From Escherichia coli (GTDB lineage: Bacteria; Pseudomonadota; Gammaproteobacteria; Enterobacterales; Enterobacteriaceae), in NCBI RefSeq assembly GCF_003790525.1, contig NZ_CP033635.1: a stretch of 64,000 nucleotides of DNA. One strand, written 5' to 3'. The stretch's first letter is position 1. Every line of letters begins with the position of its first letter. The notes beneath the pieces are model-generated. The model worked only from the letters and a program-made list of their open reading frames with translations, was not told where the DNA came from and ran no database searches. The translations under genes were made by a program, and so were the position numbers. This document shows positions 844-13,234 of the stretch, in pieces.

Positions 844-2277
844 CTAATTGTTCTGGTAAATATCTTTATACAAACGGCTTTCAAAACGTACCAACGGAAT
901 ACGGCGATTACGCTGATCCGCCGGTTCTACTGCATAGCCAGAAAGATATTGTACAAACGCCATTCGTTGCCCGCTCGCCGTGGTAATGAATCCCGCCAGG
1001 TTATATACCCCCTGCAACGAGCCGGTTTTCGCTGAGACTTTGCCATCCACGCCCGCCTGATGCAGACCTGCACGGTACTGCAAAGAGCCGTCATAGCCCG
1101 CCAGCGGCAGCATAGAGATAAAGTTAAGTTCATTGTCGTGTTGGGCTATGTATTGCAGCACCTGCATCATGGTGGCGGGGGCAATCAGGTTATGCCGCGA
1201 AAGCCCTGAACCATCGGCAATAATGGTGTTACCAATATCGACACCGGCTTGCTGGCGCAGGATCTGACGCACGGCGTCCGACCCGGCCCGCCATGTTCCA
1301 GGCACATTGAAGCGCGCATGGCCGATCATGCGGAAAACCGTATCGGCAATCATGTTGTCCGACTTTTTCAGCATAATCTTAAGCAGATCGTGCAGCGGGG
1401 CCGACTGTTTACTGGCAACTACCGTTCCAGGTTCGTTAACTTGAGTCTGGCGCAGCAGTGTTCCGCTCCAGGTGATACCCGCCTGTTTTAACTCATCTTT
1501 CAGAATTGCCCCGGCATAGCTGGCACCATCCTGCACGGCAAAAGCCAACGGGAGCGGCTCAGAACGTTGTGGCAGGCATCCGGTCAGCGTAAAGCGGTTC
1601 AGGTCGCCTGGCACCACATCCAGCTCGCAGTATTGCGCTTCGGCAGAACCACGGGGGAGGGTGCGTACCTGGCTGAACATCGTAACGGGGTAATAAGATG
1701 CCACGCGTATAAAAGCCATATCACCAGGTTTTGGGGCACTATAGAGCGAGACGGAGAAACAGTTGCGGTCAACTATGGCGGCGGCAGGCGGAGCGCTAAA
1801 GCATTGTGTCATGTCATTCCATGGCCAGCCGGGGGCTTTATCGTGGCTGGCGAAAATGGAGGTATCTATCAACACATTGCCATCGATTTGGTTGACGCCA
1901 GATTTTTTCAAAGTCGCGACCATATTGCGAATATCCTGACGTTTTAACGTCGGATCGGCACCAAATCGCGCTACTAAGTCACCCTTAAGTACACCGTTTT
2001 CCACATTACCTTTGGTTTCAAGCGTCGTGGTAAAACGAAAATCGGGGCCGAGTTGAATCAACGCCGCCAGCGCAGTAATCACTTTCTGCGTACTGGCGGG
2101 CAGCGCCATCTGCTGACTGTGGTAATCAATAGCGGGGGCCGACGCGCCGACTTTTTGCACCATCAGGGCAAGGTTGGCACCAGCGGGGAGTTGAGTAATG
2201 TACTCATCAACATTTGCGGCCTGAACACTGAACGCTATACAGCTGGTCAATCCGATGATAAATCTGGAAAATCGCAT
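844..2277 (-). CDS. dacB: D-alanyl-D-alanine carboxypeptidase/endopeptidase PBP4
   Basis: 477-aa ORF with signal peptide MRFSRFIIGLTSCIAFSVQA and PBP4-like sequence; synteny dacB next to greA/obgE. Confidence 0.93.
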   Translation of the reverse strand: MRFSRFIIGLTSCIAFSVQAANVDEYITQLPAGANLALMVQKVGASAPAIDYHSQQMALPASTQKVITALAALIQLGPDFRFTTTLETKGNVENGVLKGDLVARFGADPTLKRQDIRNMVATLKKSGVNQIDGNVLIDTSIFASHDKAPGWPWNDMTQCFSAPPAAAIVDRNCFSVSLYSAPKPGDMAFIRVASYYPVTMFSQVRTLPRGSAEAQYCELDVVPGDLNRFTLTGCLPQRSEPLPLAFAVQDGASYAGAILKDELKQAGITWSGTLLRQTQVNEPGTVVASKQSAPLHDLLKIMLKKSDNMIADTVFRMIGHARFNVPGTWRAGSDAVRQILRQQAGVDIGNTIIADGSGLSRHNLIAPATMMQVLQYIAQHDNELNFISMLPLAGYDGSLQYRAGLHQAGVDGKVSAKTGSLQGVYNLAGFITTASGQRMAFVQYLSGYAVEPADQRNRRIPLVRFESRLYKDIYQNN

Positions 2278-2396
2278 AATCTCGCGCTAACAACCTGGAA
2301 TCGAGCCGTCATACTACGGCGCAACGCCCTATAAAGTAAACGATGACCCTTCGGGAACTTCAGGGTAAAATGACTATCAAAATGTGAATTGTAGCT

Positions 2397-2431
2397 GACC
2401 TGGGACCTGTACCCGGGTCGGTATTTTTTTT
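2397..2431 (+). terminator. Intrinsic terminator/attenuator hairpin in greA leader (consistent with GraL leader RNA)
   Basis: GACCTGGG-acctgta-CCCGGGTC stem followed by a run of eight or more T, located about 95 nt upstream of greA ATG. Confidence 0.5.
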
Positions 2432-2525
2432 GCTTCTGGTCCCGGTGAGGAGTTATGCCGGGCAGGCCGAACAGCCGGGGTGGGTGAAGACTTGCCCCAT
2501 CAGGAATATTCAAGAGGTATAACAA

Positions 2526-3002
<477 letters not shown>

Positions 3003-3046
3003 GAATTACCCAATACTCAAGATGTTGATGTATTGTAAAGAAAGGA

Positions 3047-3072
3047 AAAAGGCCGCTATGCGGCCTTTTATC
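3047..3072. terminator. Bidirectional terminator between convergent greA and yhbY
   Basis: aaaaaGGCCGctatgCGGCCtttta hairpin with A/T runs on both sides. Confidence 0.6.
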
Positions 3073-3157
3073 AACGAACAGAGCGTGGCATTTTGCTCTC
3101 CTGCCTGCGGAAAAACCCTCGTTTTACACAGCGAATGTGTGTAACTTTAGGATAATC

Positions 3158-3451
3158 TTAGCGTGGCAGCGAGATTTTACGTTCTTTAGTTGGGCGATAA
3201 AGCACCAGCGTTTTACCGATGACCTGTACATTACAGGCGCCGGTTTCGCGCACGATAGCTTCCACGATCAAGGTTTTAGTTTCGCGATCTTCGGTGGCGA
3301 TTTTCACCTTGATGAGTTCATGGTGCTCTAACGCTTGTTCAATCTCGGCCAGCACCCCTTCGGTCAAACCATTACTGCCAAGCAGAACAACTGGCTTGAG
3401 CGGATGTGCCAGACCTTTCAGGTGCTGTTTTTGTTTAGTACTCAGATTCAT
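3158..3451 (-). CDS. yhbY: RNA-binding protein YhbY (CRM/CRS1-YhbY domain, ribosome assembly)
   Basis: 97-aa ORF MNLSTKQKQHLKGLAHPLKPVVLLGSNGLTEGVLAEIEQALEHHELIKVKIATEDRETK...; divergent from rlmE as in E. coli. Confidence 0.9.
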   Translation of the reverse strand: MNLSTKQKQHLKGLAHPLKPVVLLGSNGLTEGVLAEIEQALEHHELIKVKIATEDRETKTLIVEAIVRETGACNVQVIGKTLVLYRPTKERKISLPR

Positions 3452-3576
3452 CGTATTTTTTGCTTACGTTGGGATTGAAAACGGGTCATTCTACCGCCAT
3501 CTCCCATATATCACCAAATAGGCGCGTAAAAATTTACGCAATTGGTTACGATGAGTTATCCCCATGGGAAAGTTAA

Positions 3577-4206
3577 ATGACAGGTAAGAAGCGTTCTGCC
3601 AGCTCCAGCCGCTGGCTTCAGGAACACTTTAGCGATAAATATGTTCAACAGGCACAGAAAAAGGGGTTACGTTCCCGTGCCTGGTTTAAACTTGATGAAA
3701 TACAGCAAAGTGACAAACTCTTTAAACCGGGAATGACGGTTGTCGACCTTGGTGCTGCGCCAGGTGGTTGGTCACAATATGTGGTCACCCAAATTGGCGG
3801 CAAAGGCCGTATCATCGCTTGCGATCTTTTACCTATGGATCCTATCGTTGGTGTGGACTTTCTTCAGGGCGATTTTCGTGATGAACTGGTGATGAAAGCA
3901 CTGCTGGAGCGCGTAGGCGACAGCAAAGTCCAGGTTGTCATGTCCGATATGGCACCAAACATGAGCGGAACACCGGCGGTGGATATCCCCCGTGCCATGT
4001 ATCTGGTGGAACTGGCGCTAGAAATGTGTCGTGATGTATTAGCGCCAGGTGGCAGTTTTGTAGTGAAGGTGTTCCAGGGCGAAGGTTTCGATGAGTATCT
4101 AAGGGAAATTCGCTCCCTGTTTACGAAGGTCAAAGTTCGTAAGCCGGACTCTTCTCGTGCACGTTCACGGGAAGTGTATATTGTAGCGACCGGGCGTAAA
4201 CCCTAA
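3577..4206 (+). CDS. rlmE: 23S rRNA U2552 2'-O-ribose methyltransferase RlmE (FtsJ/RrmJ)
   Basis: 209-aa ORF with SAM-binding motif [15 protein letters not shown]; directly upstream of ftsH. Confidence 0.95.
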
Positions 4207-4305
4207 CCGGGAGATTTCAGACGAAAGTTTGAAAGATGCTGGATATAGAGTATCCTGACGCTGTTTTTAACACAGTTGTAATAAGAGGTTAATCCCTTGA
4301 GTGAC

Positions 4306-6240
4306 ATGGCGAAAAACCTAATACTCTGGCTGGTCATTGCCGTTGTGCTGATGTCAGTATTCCAGAGCTTTGGGCCCAGCGAGTCTAATGGCCGTAAGGT
4401 GGATTACTCTACCTTCCTACAAGAGGTCAATAACGACCAGGTTCGTGAAGCGCGTATCAACGGACGTGAAATCAACGTTACCAAGAAAGATAGTAACCGT
4501 TATACCACTTACATTCCGGTTCAGGATCCGAAATTACTGGATAACCTGTTGACCAAGAACGTCAAGGTTGTCGGTGAACCGCCTGAAGAACCAAGCCTGC
4601 TGGCTTCTATCTTCATCTCCTGGTTCCCGATGCTGTTGCTGATTGGTGTCTGGATCTTCTTCATGCGTCAAATGCAGGGCGGCGGTGGCAAAGGTGCCAT
4701 GTCGTTTGGTAAGAGCAAAGCGCGCATGCTGACGGAAGATCAGATCAAAACGACCTTTGCTGACGTTGCGGGCTGCGACGAAGCAAAAGAAGAAGTTGCT
4801 GAACTGGTTGAGTATCTGCGCGAGCCGAGCCGCTTCCAGAAACTCGGCGGTAAGATCCCGAAAGGCGTCCTGATGGTCGGTCCTCCGGGTACCGGTAAAA
4901 CGCTGCTGGCGAAAGCGATTGCAGGCGAAGCGAAAGTTCCGTTCTTTACTATCTCCGGTTCTGACTTCGTAGAAATGTTCGTCGGTGTGGGTGCATCCCG
5001 TGTTCGTGACATGTTCGAACAGGCGAAGAAAGCGGCACCGTGCATCATCTTTATCGATGAAATCGACGCCGTAGGCCGCCAGCGTGGCGCAGGTCTGGGC
5101 GGTGGTCACGATGAACGTGAACAGACTTTGAACCAGATGCTGGTTGAGATGGATGGCTTCGAAGGTAACGAAGGTATCATCGTTATCGCCGCGACTAACC
5201 GTCCGGACGTTCTTGACCCGGCCCTGCTGCGTCCTGGCCGTTTCGACCGTCAGGTTGTGGTTGGCTTGCCAGATGTTCGTGGTCGTGAGCAGATCCTGAA
5301 AGTTCACATGCGTCGCGTACCATTGGCACCCGATATCGACGCGGCAATCATTGCCCGTGGTACTCCTGGTTTCTCCGGTGCTGACCTGGCGAACCTGGTG
5401 AACGAAGCGGCACTGTTCGCTGCTCGTGGCAACAAACGCGTTGTGTCGATGGTTGAGTTCGAGAAAGCGAAAGACAAAATCATGATGGGTGCGGAACGTC
5501 GCTCCATGGTGATGACGGAAGCGCAGAAAGAATCGACGGCTTACCACGAAGCGGGTCACGCGATTATCGGTCGCCTGGTGCCGGAACACGATCCGGTGCA
5601 CAAAGTAACGATTATCCCGCGCGGTCGTGCGCTGGGTGTGACCTTCTTCTTGCCTGAGGGCGACGCAATCAGCGCCAGCCGTCAGAAACTGGAAAGCCAG
5701 ATTTCTACGCTGTACGGTGGTCGTCTGGCAGAAGAGATCATCTACGGGCCGGAACATGTTTCTACCGGTGCGTCCAACGATATTAAAGTTGCGACCAACC
5801 TGGCACGTAACATGGTGACTCAGTGGGGTTTCTCTGAGAAACTCGGTCCGCTGCTGTATGCGGAAGAAGAAGGTGAAGTGTTCCTCGGCCGTAGCGTAGC
5901 GAAAGCGAAACATATGTCCGATGAAACTGCACGTATCATCGACCAGGAAGTGAAAGCACTGATTGAGCGTAACTATAATCGTGCGCGTCAGCTTCTGACC
6001 GACAATATGGATATTCTGCATGCGATGAAAGATGCTCTCATGAAATATGAGACTATCGACGCACCGCAGATTGATGACCTGATGGCACGTCGCGATGTAC
6101 GTCCGCCAGCGGGCTGGGAAGAACCAGTCGCTTCTAACAATTCTGGCGACAATGGTAGTCCAAAGGCTCCACGTCCGGTTGATGAACCGCGTACGCCGAA
6201 CCCGGGTAACACCATGTCAGAGCAGTTAGGCGACAAGTAA
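4306..6240 (+). CDS. ftsH: ATP-dependent zinc metalloprotease FtsH (HflB)
   Basis: ORF contains [19 protein letters not shown] membrane anchor, Walker [14 protein letters not shown] zinc motif; 644 aa from ATG 4306. The ORF also extends in frame to TTG 4297, which has the better Shine-Dalgarno spacing (AAGAGG 4283-4288). Confidence 0.92.
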
Positions 6241-6271
6241 GTTCCCGCATCAGATGACTGTATTTGTACCG

Positions 6272-6302
6272 AAAACCCCGGGGCGTGCTCCGGGGTTTTT
6301 TC
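6272..6302 (+). terminator. Rho-independent terminator after ftsH
   Basis: aaaaCCCCGGggcgtgctCCGGGGtttttt. Confidence 0.6.
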
Positions 6303-6329
6303 TTATCAATTCATACCAGGGATAACACC

Positions 6330-7178
6330 ATGAAACTCTTTGCCCAGGGCACTTCACTGGACCTTAGCCATCCTCACGTAATGGGGATCCTCAACGTCAC
6401 GCCTGATTCCTTTTCGGATGGCGGCACGCATAACTCGCTGATAGATGCCGTGAAACATGCGAATCTGATGATCAACGCTGGCGCGACGATCATTGACGTT
6501 GGTGGCGAGTCCACGCGCCCAGGAGCGGCGGAAGTTAGCGTTGAAGAAGAGTTGCAACGTGTTATTCCTGTGGTTGAGGCAATTGCTCAACGCTTCGAAG
6601 TCTGGATCTCGGTAGATACATCCAAACCAGAAGTCATCCGTGAGTCAGCGAAAGTTGGCGCTCACATTATTAACGATATCCGCTCCCTTTCCGAACCTGG
6701 CGCTCTGGAGGCGGCTGCAGAAACCGGTTTACCGGTTTGTCTGATGCATATGCAGGGAAATCCAAAAACCATGCAGGAAGCGCCGAAGTATGACGATGTC
6801 TTTGCAGAAGTGAATCGCTACTTTATTGAGCAAATAGCACGTTGCGAGCAGGCGGGTATCGCAAAAGAGAAATTGTTGCTCGACCCCGGATTCGGTTTCG
6901 GTAAAAATCTCTCCCATAACTATTCATTACTGGCGCGCCTGGCTGAATTTCACCATTTCAACCTGCCGCTGTTGGTGGGTATGTCACGAAAATCGATGAT
7001 TGGGCAACTGCTGAACGTGGGGCCGTCCGAGCGCCTGAGCGGTAGTCTGGCCTGTGCGGTTATTGCCGCAATGCAAGGCGCGCACATCATTCGTGTTCAT
7101 GACGTCAAAGAAACCGTAGAAGCGATGCGGGTGGTGGAAGCCACTCTGTCTGCAAAGGAAAACAAACGCTATGAGTAA
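6330..7178 (+). CDS. folP: Dihydropteroate synthase
   Basis: ORF from ATG 6330: [32 protein letters not shown]..., 282 aa; ORF-track start at 6264 is an upstream in-frame extension. Confidence 0.93.
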
Positions 7179-8508
7179 TCGTAAATATTTCGGTACCGAT
7201 GGGATTCGTGGTCGTGTAGGGGATGCGCCGATCACACCTGATTTTGTGCTTAAGCTGGGTTGGGCAGCGGGTAAAGTGCTGGCGCGCCACGGCTCCCGTA
7301 AGATCATTATTGGTAAAGACACGCGTATTTCTGGCTATATGCTGGAGTCAGCACTGGAAGCGGGTCTGGCGGCTGCCGGTCTTTCCGCACTCTTCACTGG
7401 CCCGATGCCAACACCGGCCGTGGCTTATCTGACGCGTACCTTCCGCGCAGAGGCCGGAATTGTGATATCTGCATCGCATAACCCGTTCTACGATAATGGC
7501 ATTAAATTTTTCTCTATCGACGGCACCAAACTACCGGATGCAGTTGAAGAAGCCATCGAAGCGGAAATGGAAAAAGAGATCAGCTGTGTTGATTCGGCAG
7601 AACTGGGTAAAGCCAGCCGTATCGTTGATGCTGCGGGTCGCTATATCGAGTTTTGCAAAGCCACGTTCCCGAACGAACTTAGCCTCAGTGAACTGAAGAT
7701 TGTGGTGGATTGTGCAAACGGTGCGACTTACCACATCGCGCCGAACGTGCTGCGTGAACTGGGGGCGAACGTTATCGCTATCGGTTGTGAGCCGAACGGT
7801 GTAAATATCAATGCCGAAGTGGGGGCTACCGACGTTCGCGCGCTCCAGGCTCGTGTGCTGGCTGAAAAAGCGGATCTCGGTATTGCCTTCGACGGCGACG
7901 GCGATCGCGTGATTATGGTTGACCATGAAGGCAATAAAGTCGATGGCGATCAGATCATGTATATCATCGCGCGTGAAGGTCTTCGTCAGGGCCAGCTGCG
8001 TGGTGGCGCTGTGGGTACATTGATGAGCAACATGGGGCTTGAACTGGCGCTGAAACAGTTAGGAATTCCATTTGCGCGCGCGAAAGTGGGTGACCGCTAC
8101 GTACTGGAAAAAATGCAGGAGAAAGGCTGGCGTATCGGTGCAGAGAACTCCGGTCATGTGATCCTGCTGGATAAAACCACTACCGGTGACGGCATCGTTG
8201 CTGGCTTGCAGGTGCTGGCGGCGATGGCACGTAACCATATGAGCCTGCACGACCTTTGCAGCGGCATGAAAATGTTCCCGCAAATCCTGGTAAACGTGCG
8301 TTACACCGCAGGTAGCGGCGATCCGCTGGAGCATGAATCAGTCAAAGCTGTGACCGCAGAAGTTGAAGCGGCGCTGGGTAGCCGTGGACGTGTGCTGTTG
8401 CGTAAATCCGGCACCGAACCGTTAATTCGCGTGATGGTGGAAGGCGAAGACGAAGCGCAGGTGACTGAATTTGCACACCGCATCGCCGATGCAGTAAAAG
8501 CCGTTTAA
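7171..8508 (+). CDS. glmM: Phosphoglucosamine mutase
   Basis: 445-aa [21 protein letters not shown]... with phosphoserine loop SASHNP; overlaps folP stop by 8 nt. Confidence 0.95.
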
Positions 8509-8526
8509 AGCGTTAGATAACTGGCT

Positions 8527-8553
8527 AAAAAGGCGGCGATTGTCGCCTTTTTT
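8527..8553 (+). terminator. Terminator-like hairpin after glmM
   Basis: aaaaAGGCGGCGAttgTCGCCttttttct. Confidence 0.45.
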
Positions 8554-8735
8554 CTCAGCGAACACATCGGTTTTGCTGTTTTTTTCCGCAGTTGATACAA
8601 TGCGATAAAATTGCCCTTGCGAAGGTCATTCGCTTTGGTTAGTATTCACACCCGCTTCAGTGGGAAAGATTAAAAACTCCCGCTTTATTGGTTGAAGCAT
8701 TGGTACGCGGCAACTCCGCAAGGAACAGGTTGATT

Positions 8736-9068
8736 ATGTACGAAGCTCTTTTAGTAGTTTTCCTTATTGTGGCAATTGGCCTTGTTGGTCTGATCATGCT
8801 GCAGCAAGGTAAAGGCGCTGATATGGGAGCCTCCTTCGGAGCAGGCGCTTCCGCTACGCTGTTTGGTTCAAGTGGTTCTGGTAACTTCATGACCCGCATG
8901 ACGGCGCTGCTGGCAACGTTATTCTTCATCATCAGTCTGGTGCTGGGTAACATCAATAGCAATAAAACCAATAAAGGTAGCGAATGGGAAAACCTGAGTG
9001 CGCCGGCGAAAACCGAACAAACTCAGTCAGCTGCTCCGGCTAAGCCGACCAGCGATATCCCGAACTAA
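8736..9068 (+). CDS. secG: Protein-export membrane protein SecG
   Basis: ORF from ATG 8736: MYEALLVVFLIVAIGLVGLIMLQQGKGADMGASFGAGASATLFGSSGSGNF..., 110 aa; SD AGGA 8721-8724. Confidence 0.9.
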   Translation: MYEALLVVFLIVAIGLVGLIMLQQGKGADMGASFGAGASATLFGSSGSGNFMTRMTALLATLFFIISLVLGNINSNKTNKGSEWENLSAPAKTEQTQSAAPAKPTSDIPN

Positions 9069-9082
9069 AAAGTAGTATCCGT

Positions 9083-9169
9083 GCCGAGGTGGTGGAATTG
9101 GTAGACACGCTACCTTGAGGTGGTAGTGCCCAATAGGGCTTACGGGTTCAAGTCCCGTCCTCGGTACCA
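9083..9169 (+). tRNA. leuU: tRNA-Leu (long variable arm, CCA-encoded)
   Basis: GCCGAGGTGGTGGAATTGGTAGACACGCTACCTTGAGGTGGTAGTGCCCAATAGGGCTTACGGGTTCAAGTCCCGTCCTCGGTACCA; acceptor stem GCCGAGG/CCTCGGT, T-loop GGTTCAAGTCC; immediately downstream of secG. Confidence 0.9.
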
Positions 9170-9180
9170 AATTCCAGAAA

Positions 9181-9208
9181 AGAGACGCTGAAAAGCGTCT
9201 TTTTTCGT
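9181..9208 (+). terminator. Rho-independent terminator after leuU
   Basis: AGACGCTgaaaAGCGTCTtttttcgtttt. Confidence 0.7.
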
Positions 9209-9627
9209 TTTGGTCCTGGTCTGAGGAATGGTTGTCAGGTATCTGTATCTCGTCCAGTTGCTTTACTCGTAGCTGGTACCTTGAAACGATGGTGCCGGTA
9301 CGCCTTAGTTATAAACTTTTCCCTTCTGCTGACATAATTGGCACTTTATTGTGTCAACTCCAGTTCCGGTACGAATACGGATATGTTTACTTCTCGATAA
9401 ACCATCCTGCTCCTGTCAGTATAACTACTGATGGCTACGTTCTGCGTAATGTTTAGAGACGCATTGATAATGTTATTTAATTACTGAGAACGCAATGGTC
9501 GCATCATTTAAAAAGAAAAAACTAACAGTGTTTCGGTCTGATATGGATCAGAGTTGAAAAACATGTCTGATATAAAATTGAACATTGTTGATAATTGTTT
9601 ATATTGGTTGTGAACCTGGATTTCTGG

Positions 9628-11253
9628 ATGACAGTATTCAACAAATTTGCTAGAAGTTTTAAATCTCATTGGTTGTTGTATCTTTGTGTTATTGTTTTTG
9701 GTATTACGAACTTAGTCGCCTCTTCCGGAGCGCATATGGTTCAGCGATTGCTGTTCTTCGTCCTGACCATCCTGGTTGTTAAACGTATATCATCCCTTCC
9801 GCTTCGCCTGCTTGTTGCCGCACCATTTGTGTTACTGACTGCGGCAGACATGAGTATTAGCCTCTATTCATGGTGTACCTTTGGTACAACTTTCAATGAT
9901 GGATTTGCGATTAGTGTGCTGCAGAGTGATCCGGATGAAGTTGTGAAAATGTTGGGGATGTATATCCCTTATCTATGTGCTTTTGCTTTTTTATCCCTTC
10001 TTTTTTTGGCAGTAATAATAAAATATGATGTTTCCTTGCCGACAAAAAAAGTGACAGGAATATTATTGCTGATTGTCATTTCGGGCAGTTTATTTTCAGC
10101 TTGTCAATTTGCTTATAAAGATGCAAAAAATAAAAAAGCGTTCAGTCCATATATACTAGCGTCTCGATTTGCTACCTATACACCGTTTTTCAATCTCAAT
10201 TATTTTGCTTTAGCAGCGAAAGAGCATCAAAGATTACTCTCAATTGCAAACACGGTGCCGTATTTTCAATTATCAGTCAGGGATACAGGTATTGATACCT
10301 ACGTGTTGATTGTGGGGGAGTCTGTACGTGTCGACAATATGTCTTTGTATGGATACACACGCTCTACGACACCGCAAGTCGAAGCACAAAGAAAACAGAT
10401 CAAACTGTTTAATCAAGCAATAAGCGGTGCACCTTACACTGCGCTGTCGGTTCCCCTTTCTTTAACTGCTGATTCTGTTTTGAGTCATGACATTCATAAT
10501 TACCCGGACAACATTATTAATATGGCTAATCAAGCAGGATTTCAGACTTTCTGGCTAAGCTCGCAATCCGCTTTTCGGCAGAATGGTACAGCAGTTACCA
10601 GTATCGCCATGCGCGCCATGGAAACAGTCTATGTCAGAGGATTTGATGAATTGTTGTTGCCGCATTTATCGCAAGCGTTACAGCAAAAGACGCAGCAAAA
10701 GAAACTGATTGTTCTTCATTTAAATGGAAGCCATGAACCGGCTTGTAGCGCCTATCCGCAATCCAGCGCCGTGTTTCAACCGCAGGACGATCAGGATGCC
10801 TGCTATGACAACTCCATTCATTACACAGATAGTTTGCTAGGTCAGGTTTTTGAATTATTAAAAGATCGCCGCGCCTCGGTCATGTATTTTGCCGACCACG
10901 GCCTGGAACGCGACCCTACGAAGAAGAACGTCTATTTTCATGGAGGCAGGGAGGCCAGCCAGCAGGCATATCATGTCCCGATGTTTATCTGGTATAGCCC
11001 CGTTCTTGGGGATGGCGTGGATCGCACAACGGAAAACGATATCTTTTCCACTGCGTACAATAATTACCTTATTAATGCGTGGATGGGGGTAACAAAGCCG
11101 GAACAGCCGCAAACGCTGGAGGAAGTGATTGCACACTATAAAGGAGACTCACGGGTTGTAGATGCAAACCATGATGTTTTCGATTTTGTGATGCTAAGAA
11201 AGGAGTTTACTGAGGATAAGCAAGGTAACCCCACCCCTGAAGGGCAGGGTTGA
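9628..11253 (+). CDS. yhbX: Inner-membrane sulfatase-family protein, phosphoethanolamine-transferase (EptA/OpgE)-like paralogue
   Basis: 541-aa ORF from ATG 9628 (MTVFNKFARSFKSHWLLYLCVIVFG...), N-terminal hydrophobic segments followed by a soluble domain; gene is AT-rich relative to neighbours. Confidence 0.8.
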   Translation: MTVFNKFARSFKSHWLLYLCVIVFGITNLVASSGAHMVQRLLFFVLTILVVKRISSLPLRLLVAAPFVLLTAADMSISLYSWCTFGTTFNDGFAISVLQSDPDEVVKMLGMYIPYLCAFAFLSLLFLAVIIKYDVSLPTKKVTGILLLIVISGSLFSACQFAYKDAKNKKAFSPYILASRFATYTPFFNLNYFALAAKEHQRLLSIANTVPYFQLSVRDTGIDTYVLIVGESVRVDNMSLYGYTRSTTPQVEAQRKQIKLFNQAISGAPYTALSVPLSLTADSVLSHDIHNYPDNIINMANQAGFQTFWLSSQSAFRQNGTAVTSIAMRAMETVYVRGFDELLLPHLSQALQQKTQQKKLIVLHLNGSHEPACSAYPQSSAVFQPQDDQDACYDNSIHYTDSLLGQVFELLKDRRASVMYFADHGLERDPTKKNVYFHGGREASQQAYHVPMFIWYSPVLGDGVDRTTENDIFSTAYNNYLINAWMGVTKPEQPQTLEEVIAHYKGDSRVVDANHDVFDFVMLRKEFTEDKQGNPTPEGQG

Positions 11254-11260
11254 TGTCGAA

Positions 11261-12619
<1,359 letters not shown>

Positions 12620-12829: not shown

Positions 12830-12859
12830 TTGACAAAATGTGGCATGGATCACTATAAT
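12830..12859 (+). promoter_or_regulatory. Near-consensus sigma70 promoter upstream of metY (TTGACA-N18-TATAAT)
   Basis: TTGACA at 12830-12835 and TATAAT at 12854-12859 on + strand; a second weaker -10 TAGAAT at 12931-12936 lies closer to the tRNA. Confidence 0.5.
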
Positions 12860-13028: not shown

Positions 13029-13152
13029 CTTTCCCTTAGAGTCCTTTTTCAAATATACTGTGAAGACTTCGGCCTTCGTAGTGGGATTTGAAAAAATCCT
13101 TCTGGAAAGTGCTCCAGACCGCAGTTGCGGTTATAGGGTTCAGTTATATAAA

Positions 13153-13177
13153 GCCCCGATTTATCGGGGTTTTTTGT
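13153..13177 (+). terminator. Rho-independent terminator/attenuator downstream of metY
   Basis: aaaGCCCCGATttATCGGGGttttttgtt; a second weaker hairpin GGGCtttaGGCCC+T7 at 13196-13217. Confidence 0.6.
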
Positions 13178-13234
13178 TATCTGACTACAGAATAACTGGG
13201 CTTTAGGCCCTTTTTTTATGTCTTGGGGGTGGGC

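Follow-up and report, generated by a model that had tools for sequence, protein, structure and literature searches.

The window analysed here is a 64,000-nt stretch of Escherichia coli DNA (RefSeq assembly GCF_003790525.1, contig NZ_CP033635.1), and all coordinates are positions within it. Its tRNA-Leu gene leuU (anticodon GAG; 9083..9169, + strand) was called by ARAGORN, by Rfam RF00005 and in the RefSeq annotation. The sole gene between leuU and the convergent argininosuccinate synthase gene argG (annotated at 11261-12604, - strand) is yhbX (b3173), an already known E. coli gene. Its CDS spans 9628-11253 on the + strand and encodes 541 aa plus stop; it rests on the RefSeq annotation, on an intact ORF in 5 diverse strains, and on Pfam, NCBIfam and PDB sequence and fold matches. 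An ORF list gives a longer alternative with a TTG start at 9595, against the RefSeq start at 9628. The gap from leuU to yhbX is 458 bp, while the two convergent stops are separated only by the 7-bp spacer TGTCGAA (11254..11260). An earlier note on this DNA had described yhbX as adjoining a tRNA-Leu gene and stopping 7 bp from the argG stop, and the coordinates and sequence agree.

The gap upstream of yhbX has two parts. First comes the leuU intrinsic terminator (9177..9211, + strand), a 13-bp hairpin followed by a T-run, recognized by terminator scan, by its fold (-23.9 kcal/mol, z -4.5) and by homology between haplotypes. Next is a 416-bp AT-rich spacer or leader of yhbX (9212..9627, + strand), delimited by its composition and by its absence from the alternative E. 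coli haplotype described below and from other genera. The earlier note had called the whole interval 9170-11260 AT-rich; this holds from 9212 on, the first 42 bases (9170-9211) being the leuU terminator that all haplotypes carry.

Composition and contents of the leuU-argG slot

The composition of yhbX differs from that of its neighbours; a uniform composition was one outcome that the earlier note had said would count against its reading. Compared with the 46 other annotated genes of the same 50 kb, yhbX has a GC content of 0.431 (mean 0.529, sd 0.029; z -3.4) and a GC3 of 0.423 (mean 0.564; z -2.5), both the lowest among the 47 genes. Its codon usage, which that note had proposed checking, is also the most atypical of the 47 (z +2.9), while its GC2 is unremarkable (z -0.7). 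The region 9170-9627 is lower still at 0.389, against 0.498 for secG and 0.532 for argG, so that the noted AT-richness of gene and upstream region relative to these neighbours stands. GC climbs from 5′ to 3′ along yhbX (0.385, 0.424, 0.484). A Buttiauxella homologue and an E. coli paralogue 64% identical to YhbX are likewise low in GC, and the bias could in part be a family trait instead of a donor signature.

Among 5426 complete E. coli genomes, yhbX is present at no less than 80% coverage in 5166 (about 95%). Other haplotypes, without yhbX, fill the slot in 238 (about 4.4%): 237 carry a helix-turn-helix (HTH) gene together with an argG terminator, and one a degenerate remnant of that HTH cassette. 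Two fragmentary matches that looked like divergent yhbX were rejected as noisy assemblies. Outside E. coli, yhbX is absent from the slot in Salmonella diarizonae, Citrobacter amalonaticus, Citrobacter MGH106, a Salmonella enterica contig, C. koseri and E. marmotae. In the first three, leuU and argG lie just 178-210 bp apart, with the leuU terminator, REP-like sequence and an argG terminator in the interval; in the other three an HTH gene occupies the slot. The gene is therefore not universal at this position in Enterobacterales; universal presence was the other observation that the earlier note had named as weighing against its reading. The searches differed in reach: an exact leuU pattern was limited to 16 loci, since even the E. 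marmotae tRNA has another sequence, a RimP-anchored context look-up yielded E. coli alone, and the first YhbX homologue search, crowded with almost identical E. coli proteins, was uninformative on relatives.

The E. coli HTH gene shares 91.7% DNA identity with that of E. marmotae, equal to the values for argG (92.3%) and glmM (90.8%), and so looks vertically inherited between these two species. Its identity to the Salmonella and Citrobacter counterparts is only 71-74%, against 85-86% for argG; since it is so much more diverged than argG, related HTH genes may have inserted here repeatedly. A search of the HTH protein against phages gave no match. The flanks of the HTH haplotype are no more diverged than those of two yhbX strains, save for about five additional mismatches within the initial 100 nt, and a divergent recombination tract around it was accordingly rejected. 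The ArgG C-terminal dipeptide, GQ or VK, was considered as an insertion scar and likewise rejected: GQ occurs with the HTH haplotype in E. marmotae, so the difference is ordinary polymorphism.

One explanation of this distribution is that yhbX is ancestral in enterobacteria and was lost repeatedly, its low GC reflecting the amino-acid usage of a membrane protein and low expression. The near-fixation of yhbX in E. coli, a synonymous divergence as large as that of argG, the GC2 that does not deviate and the low GC of homologues elsewhere would all suit it. However, no examined genome outside E. coli has yhbX between leuU and argG, and three genera hold a different, syntenic gene there. The next homologue clusters (Pectobacterium sp., Buttiauxella, Mixta gaviniae, Microvirgula, Proteus) are at most 48% identical to YhbX, whereas ArgG and GlmM are 94-96% identical among Escherichia, Salmonella and Citrobacter; the homologues are moreover at other loci, unrelated ones in the two contexts read (Buttiauxella and Mixta). 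GC3 and codon usage are outlying beyond what amino-acid composition accounts for. We regard repeated loss as very unlikely.

Cassette boundaries and the role of the tRNA gene

Comparison with genomes lacking yhbX, which the earlier note had proposed as the way to define the insertion boundaries, places the left boundary at 9211|9212: homology with the HTH and remnant haplotypes stops after base 42 of the interval (9211), and the leuU terminator is thus the last stretch common to every haplotype (yhbX, HTH and remnant). The right boundary lies within 11254-11260. Homology with the HTH haplotype restarts at 11260, and past the argG stop the window sequence departs within 0-7 nt from those of E. 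marmotae, the HTH-haplotype E. coli strain 1943 (NZ_CP023359.1) and E7-1N7. The variable unit would then be a low-GC cassette of about 2.05 kb, from 9212 to about 11257, made up of yhbX and its 416-bp AT-rich leader.

The adjoining tRNA gene raises the question of whether this is a classical tRNA-targeted island, in which an integrase-bearing element entered leuU and decayed to yhbX alone. The DNA combines the deviant GC and GC3 given above (z -3.4 and -2.5) with variable presence in close relatives, as an island should, and a tRNA gene is its immediate neighbour. The space downstream of leuU also varies in cargo between genera (Intestinirhabdus alba has a fimbrial operon there), while leuU itself, on the left of the variable slot, is conserved, with 0 variable sites in 5 E. 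coli strains. The 64% paralogue, which 454 E. coli genomes carry on island DNA and which also occurs on one plasmid, rides integrase-associated islands at other sites. Against such an origin, the 2 kb between leuU and argG contain no integrase, recombinase or remnant of one. A search for direct repeats recovered no copy of the tRNA 3′ end at the distal boundary, only a 20-nt match at 75% identity. The only tRNA-like repeat, at 9277-9307, was rejected as a leftover half-site when its local alignment score of 11 was reached in 91 of 500 shuffles. The left boundary falls beyond the leuU terminator, so leuU was not the crossover site; and as the right boundary directly adjoins the argG stop and an earlier gene has gone, replacement by recombination is a better fit than site-specific insertion. 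An island decayed in place is accordingly unlikely in our estimate. Of the landing site that the earlier note saw in the tRNA gene, adjacency to the cassette survives, and leuU as a demonstrated integration target does not.

Divergence dates the replacement as old. In the same E. coli strain pairs dS is 0.054-0.085 for yhbX and 0.046-0.129 for argG, dN/dS of yhbX is 0.04-0.24 among 5 diverse strains, and the gene is near-fixed; together these values place acquisition well in the past. By the same sequence measures yhbX is under purifying selection. The cassette would have arrived in the E. coli lineage before E. coli diversified and after the split from E. marmotae, a timing set by E. marmotae, the one other Escherichia species covered. 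It probably replaced an arrangement of HTH-regulator gene and argG terminator in the leuU-argG slot, as haplotype comparison indicates; today it is nearly fixed and selectively maintained, with the older HTH haplotype surviving in about 4% of genomes. The acquisition proposed in the earlier note is thus supported by foreign composition and absence in relatives, but a recent island and insertion into an empty site are not: the event is old and an older occupant was probably replaced. The evidence supports yhbX as old imported DNA and not a recent island.

The argG junction and the yhbX leader

A hairpin terminator of argG is present in the E. coli HTH haplotype (z -2.8), in the E7-1N7 remnant, and in E. 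marmotae, Salmonella and Citrobacter; it is missing in the yhbX haplotype. A consensus terminator scan found no terminator-like site between or around the yhbX and argG stops, in keeping with the earlier remark that the 7-bp gap leaves no room for separate terminators. The loss of the ancestral argG terminator would explain the 7-bp junction, and overlapping yhbX and argG transcripts are to be expected from it. Such overlap has been catalogued in MG1655, where argG-yhbX is among 165 convergent excludons (ExcludonFinder, PMC12288877). The pair resembles these other excludons in convergence, in its very short gap and in having no canonical terminator between the genes; it is unlike them in that the arrangement can be traced to the loss of an ancestral argG terminator when the cassette arrived.

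What may serve in place of that terminator is a GC-rich 11-bp hairpin in the last 8 codons of yhbX (11227..11251), foldable on both strands. It sits in a 13-residue C-terminal extension, EDKQGNPTPEGQG, that neither the paralogue nor any of 8 homologues has and whose model tail has pLDDT values of 51 and 36; positions 11222-11272 are invariant in 5 strains. The hairpin is not a canonical terminator, since it has no U-run, but it is a candidate for a transcript-end structure shared by yhbX and argG. We considered that it might be the old terminator of yhbX itself, absorbed into the frame after loss of a stop codon, and rejected this: neither the paralogue nor the Buttiauxella homologue has similar downstream sequence.

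The leader (9212..9627) presumably carries the yhbX promoter and 5′ UTR. A promoter scan found only weak sigma-70-like matches in it, at 9567-9605, and an RpoH SELEX peak has been reported in the yhbX-leuU spacer of K-12 (PMC5493296). The leader has no Rfam match and is homologous neither to the upstream sequence of the 64% paralogue nor to the small ORF that precedes that paralogue. Pairwise identities had suggested strong conservation of the leader; this was downgraded to moderate constraint on the basis of five strains, in which 4.6% of leader sites vary against 8.7% of yhbX third codon positions (p=0.014).

The YhbX protein and its significance

The earlier note gave YhbX the membrane-anchored, sulfatase-family architecture of phosphoethanolamine (pEtN) transferases, and each part of this is recovered. 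An N-terminal membrane domain (residues 1 to about 170; 9628..10137, + strand), delimited by hydropathy, AlphaFold helices and structural alignment, has five hydrophobic segments by Kyte-Doolittle (approximately 13-35, 41-59, 61-80, 108-132 and 141-163) and helices at 2-29, 34-52, 57-85, 102-132 and 140-169 in the AlphaFold model (pLDDT 91.5). The periplasmic sulfatase-fold catalytic domain (residues 224-466; 10297..11025, + strand), delimited by Pfam, Foldseek and residue alignment, matches Pfam Sulfatase PF00884 with an E-value of 2.3e-56. Foldseek with this domain gave EcEptC (6a82) at TM 0.75-0.78, and NmEptA and MCR at 0.69-0.76; full-length structural alignment to NmEptA (5fgn) and MCR-1 (9nww) gave TM 0.61 over about 540-560 columns. 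Residues E231, T271, H369, D423, H424 and H438 align with NmEptA E240, T280, H383, D452, H453 and H465, all identical, and are invariant or at least 90% conserved in an alignment of 45 subfamily sequences; E104, in a periplasmic loop, is also invariant there. In the published EptA and MCR-1 structures the Thr is the nucleophile, Glu, Asp and His are zinc ligands, and two further His contribute. The predicted nucleophile T271 is the codon 10438-10440.

YhbX thus has three structural features of the family: a five-helix inner-membrane domain, a periplasmic sulfatase/alkaline-phosphatase fold and the catalytic set. From this we infer that YhbX is an enzyme of the inner membrane whose active site faces the periplasm, and that it belongs to the pEtN-transferase branch of the alkaline-phosphatase superfamily. 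Homology to EptA, MCR-1 and EptC suggests that E231, T271, D423 and H424 form a Zn2+ site, aided by H369 and H438, and that the enzyme would move pEtN from phosphatidylethanolamine onto Thr271 and then to an envelope acceptor.

The best solved-structure match by both sequence (E 6e-24) and fold is EptC/CptA (PDB 5zzu, 6a82), which in E. coli and Salmonella modifies phosphorylated heptose I of the LPS core with pEtN. It shares with YhbX the membrane anchor, the sulfatase-fold domain and the catalytic residues, and CptA is the best specific NCBIfam model; identity is only about 23%, however, and a separate eptC is present elsewhere in E. coli. The lipid A pEtN transferases NmEptA and MCR-1 are like YhbX in full-length architecture and the six catalytic residues, but are 18-20% identical to it, and the Pfam EptA_B_N domain is not detected in YhbX at an E-value cutoff of 0.01. 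The NCBIfam models for EptA, EptB, CptA/EptC and MCR-1 to MCR-13 gave 94-156 bits against curated cutoffs of 404-1250, so that none was passed; with 143 bits against 404, YhbX is not a CptA orthologue. We know of no link of YhbX to polymyxin resistance. OpgE (YbiP), which adds pEtN to osmoregulated periplasmic glucans, is a member of the same superfamily, with about 29% identity across about 60% of the length, but it is encoded by another gene elsewhere in the genome, and the similarity is confined to the catalytic domain. Some sources label YhbX a ‘glucan phosphoethanolaminetransferase’; no evidence ties it to glucans.

True relatives of YhbX are the other members of its subfamily, in Proteus mirabilis (PMI3040), Buttiauxella, Mixta, Pectobacterium and Microvirgula that are 33-48% identical over the full length and share the invariant residues. 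The best E-value of 45 members to the EptA, EptB, CptA or MCR models is 1.5e-56 (CptA), which suggests that they score below threshold as YhbX does. As a separate paralogue, YhbX probably has an acceptor other than those of EptA, EptB, EptC/CptA and OpgE. The earlier note took its substrate not to be established, and published work indeed gives no established function for yhbX (PMC4013655); a literature search on b3173 found nothing relevant.

A gene of this kind might also be a silenced, dispensable passenger headed for loss, its protein having no real role. About 4.4% of complete E. coli genomes do without it at no obvious cost, the searchable literature gives no clear yhbX phenotype or substrate, and AT-rich leaders like this one are usually silenced by H-NS. 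Yet the 541-codon frame is unbroken in five divergent lineages with the low dN/dS given above, all catalytic residues are retained and are invariant through the subfamily, and yhbX has persisted since before E. coli diversification. We think a mere passenger quite improbable. A real function is likely instead, because this is lineage-specific imported DNA kept by selection.

The account that we prefer, and hold as a whole to be likely, is that yhbX encodes a pEtN-transferase-type enzyme, that it is an old import which replaced an HTH gene and the argG terminator, and that its transcripts should consequently overlap those of argG. The biology is ordinary, yet the history of yhbX is unusually clear. 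The gene is one of the remaining uncharacterized genes of K-12, and the last of its pEtN-transferase set without a known target. Enzymes of this class affect resistance to polymyxin and antimicrobial peptides, and envelope properties. The 237 HTH-haplotype genomes and E. marmotae are natural strains without yhbX, open to direct comparison.

The junction where the terminator was lost offers a specific case in which antisense coupling can be tested. Engineers already use the argG-yhbX gap as a landing pad (PMC12421378), and users of that site may find it helpful that the gap holds the sole candidate transcript-end signals of both genes. We offer as a long shot the further proposal that YhbX adds pEtN to an envelope acceptor unserved by the known E. 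coli enzymes, a glycan or a protein and not lipid A, core or periplasmic glucan, and that argG antisense transcription through yhbX, permitted by removal of the argG terminator with arrival of the cassette, switches this modification off under arginine limitation. If true, envelope chemistry would be coupled to arginine supply in E. coli, and not in HTH-haplotype strains or in E. marmotae.

Composition and boundaries of the yhbX segment

The gene order at this locus is folP, glmM, secG, leuU, yhbX, argG, metY, rimP and nusA, and the region matches E. coli SMS-3-5 (NC_010498.1) exactly, in reverse orientation. The tRNA-Leu gene leuU (anticodon GAG) occupies 9083-9169 (+), yhbX (541 aa) 9628-11253 (+) and argG 11261-12604 (-), with 7 bp between the yhbX and argG stop codons; the earlier note had described these features correctly. 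The yhbX start used is the annotated one; a mechanical ORF list places it at an upstream TTG (9595).

As compositional baseline we took the 46 annotated genes that share a 50-kb stretch of the chromosome with yhbX. Among the 47, yhbX is lowest in GC (0.431 versus a mean of 0.529, sd 0.029; z -3.4) and in third-position GC (0.423 versus 0.564; z -2.5). GC at second positions is normal (z -0.7), and the bias is therefore not merely that of membrane-protein amino acids. GC rises along the gene (0.385 in its first third, 0.484 in its last) and is 0.389 in the upstream interval 9170-9627. The AT-richness claimed for gene and upstream region is thus confirmed, and the codon-usage check proposed with it finds yhbX the most atypical of the 47 genes (z +2.9).

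Among 5426 complete E. coli genomes, the yhbX region is present at 80% length or more in 5166, is replaced in 237 by a 1.17-kb cassette of GC 0.37, and in one (E7-1N7) gives way to a ~190-bp degenerate remnant of that second cassette's gene, along with the terminator; these three classes account for all but about 20 of the genomes. The alternative cassette carries, on the argG strand, the gene for a 317-aa protein whose N-terminus holds an XRE-type helix-turn-helix (HTH); a good terminator for argG separates argG from the HTH gene. Comparison with these yhbX-less genomes, as the earlier note had proposed, yields boundaries: homology between haplotypes ends at 9211, directly past the T-run of the leuU terminator, and restarts at 11260, at the argG stop. 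That leaves ~2.05 kb specific to the yhbX haplotype, made up of a 416-bp leader and the gene and ending at most 7 nt past the yhbX stop codon. A Logan contig (SRR3359616; 8354 nt, 82.5% identity to the window, no gap) has broken genes and looks more like a substitution-laden assembly than a genuinely divergent lineage.

The frame of 541 codons is intact in all five strains compared, which come from different lineages (SMS-3-5, K-12, O157:H7, HS-01 and AVS0972). Synonymous divergence of yhbX is 0.054-0.085, one near-identical pair excluded, similar to argG in the same pairs (0.046-0.129), and dN/dS is 0.04-0.24. The cassette therefore predates E. coli diversification, and YhbX is under purifying selection. 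The AVS0972 protein has the most amino-acid changes of the five (12-17 nonsynonymous differences); the leuU-yhbX interval of that strain (1501-1956 of its locus) is 456 nt, 2 nt less than the 458 in the window.

Occupants of the space beyond leuU

A tRNA gene had been pointed to as a common landing site for acquired DNA. The segment does adjoin leuU, in a variable slot, but the ORF list and annotation of the locus hold no integrase, a repeat search found no flanking repeats, and the crossover lies beyond the leuU terminator rather than in the tRNA gene. There is no mark of site-specific integration, and leuU is a neighbour of the slot, not a demonstrated attachment site. A tRNA-like stretch at 9277-9307 is no better than chance (91 of 500 shuffles score as well).

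The exact leuU sequence was scanned in one genome per species, giving 16 loci that were then searched with the local proteins. Salmonella diarizonae, Citrobacter amalonaticus and Citrobacter sp. MGH106 have only 178-210 bp from leuU to argG, comprising the leuU terminator, REP-like sequence and an argG hairpin terminator. In Edwardsiella, Hafnia and Tenebrionibacter metY-rimP follows leuU directly and argG too is absent from the position; the place of argG here is therefore specific to the lineage of Escherichia, Salmonella and Citrobacter. At five loci (these genera and a MAG) rimP begins ~330-450 bp past leuU. In the window metY likewise precedes rimP, with a perfect sigma-70 consensus upstream of metY (TTGACA, 18 nt, TATAAT; 12830-12859) and the rimP leader downstream (Rfam RF01770, 72.7 bits, 13117-13200), both as expected for the metY-rimP-nusA-infB operon. 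In Intestinirhabdus alba argG or metY-rimP is replaced by a DUF4822 gene, a chaperone-usher fimbrial operon and a C39-peptidase ABC exporter (1396-10804 of its locus, downstream of leuU), so in other genera as well this space takes up cargo, and the differing contents make it variable across the family. Composition at the E. coli locus is not uniform, and yhbX is absent from the slot in the other genera examined as well as in the 237 HTH-haplotype genomes.

Three other taxa have relatives of the HTH protein in the identical slot (argG, HTH gene, leuU, secG). In Escherichia marmotae, a species assignment made from exactly matching ArgG, GlmM and SecG, identity is 89% for the protein and 91.7% for its gene, beside 92.3% for argG and 90.8% for glmM DNA; the corresponding values are 73, 74, 86 and 84% in Citrobacter koseri and 71, 71, 85 and 83% in a Salmonella enterica contig. 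The gene lies at 6075-7028 in the locus of E. coli 1943, at 1904-2857 in that of E. marmotae and at 4001-4960 in loci L043 and L045. The protein (~317 aa) is conserved, with a large uncharacterised C-terminal part, and is found in the leuU-argG slot in several genera; its widespread family reaches 52-57% identity in Pseudomonas, Photorhabdus and Serratia, and a search for a phage homologue found none.

The HTH genes of E. coli and E. marmotae differ to the same extent as the housekeeping genes, as expected under vertical descent. On the simplest reading of these comparisons, which among other Escherichia species cover E. marmotae, the HTH gene and argG terminator would be the older occupants, the HTH gene would have been lost in some Salmonella and Citrobacter lineages, and the yhbX cassette would have displaced both gene and terminator in the E. 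coli lineage. We hold this order with moderate confidence, because the Salmonella and Citrobacter copies are more distant, which gives repeated insertion some room. The C-terminal dipeptide of ArgG was rejected as an insertion scar, since GQ accompanies yhbX in E. coli and the HTH haplotype in E. marmotae alike; these two residues vary freely (GQ, VK, AK, GK, SK; window 11261-11269 and loci L001, L013, L016, L019, L043, L045 and L046).

The junction with argG

The gap had been read as leaving no room for separate terminators, and a terminator scan indeed found no canonical one for yhbX or argG. The last eight yhbX codons form an 11-bp GC-rich hairpin (11227-11251) possible in both transcripts, a candidate shared terminator; it has no U-run, so that role is one we infer. 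The hairpin falls within a 13-residue YhbX tail, EDKQGNPTPEGQG, which is disordered in the AlphaFold model and missing from a paralogue and eight homologues. Positions 11222-11272 show no variation among the five strains, in contrast to the last sixth of the gene as a whole (10983-11253), which is its most variable part. An RNA-seq survey places argG-yhbX among 165 convergent MG1655 gene pairs with overlapping transcripts (PMC12288877). The closeness of the two stops is best accounted for by the past of the locus, in which the arriving cassette removed the ancestral argG terminator.

The YhbX protein and its family

The only Pfam domain in YhbX is Sulfatase (residues 224-466). All NCBIfam phosphoethanolamine (pEtN) transferase models match far under their curated cutoffs, with 156 bits (generic domain) and 143 bits (CptA subfamily, cutoff 404) as the best scores, and 45 subfamily members match equally weakly (best E-value 1.5e-56). 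Among proteins of solved structure the best matches are E. coli EptC, N. meningitidis EptA and MCR-1. NmEptA residues E240, T280, H383, D452, H453 and H465 align with YhbX E231, T271, H369, D423, H424 and H438, and each of the six YhbX residues is invariant or almost invariant across the subfamily alignment. That alignment also gave an AlphaFold model (pLDDT 91.5) with five long helices at the N-terminus and two that bridge; the model's top Foldseek match is the EcEptC catalytic domain (TM 0.75-0.78), and NmEptA and MCR-1 align over their full length (TM 0.61). On these domain, residue and fold matches YhbX belongs to the pEtN transferase superfamily and would work like such an enzyme, in keeping with the membrane-anchored, sulfatase-family architecture first suggested for it, and is not an orthologue of EptA, EptB, CptA or MCR. 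Sequence does not point to its acceptor, and the literature that could be searched names none, in agreement with the earlier note.

A search of all 50%-identity cluster representatives found only 122 clusters at E<=1e-30. The closest beyond the E. coli cluster (42-48% identity) are from Pectobacterium sp., Buttiauxella, Mixta gaviniae and Microvirgula, those of Buttiauxella and Mixta at unrelated loci; a Proteus homologue has 34% identity, agreeing with the 33% reported in the literature for PMI3040. A paralogue with 64% protein identity is carried by plasmid pRHB40-C01_2 (438-2099 of its locus) and, full-length, by the chromosomes of 454 of the 5426 E. coli genomes, there in island DNA among integrase fragments and IS1; further paralogue loci are L031 (8001-9674) and L032 (4898-5128). 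About 1400 more genomes retain a ~100-nt remnant of it, for example beside the selC integrase in CFT073. A patchy family with some members in mobile DNA fits an imported origin for yhbX, and the interpretation as acquired DNA is supported, with corrections. yhbX was a known, annotated gene before this analysis, which contributes its history and strains that can serve as natural controls.
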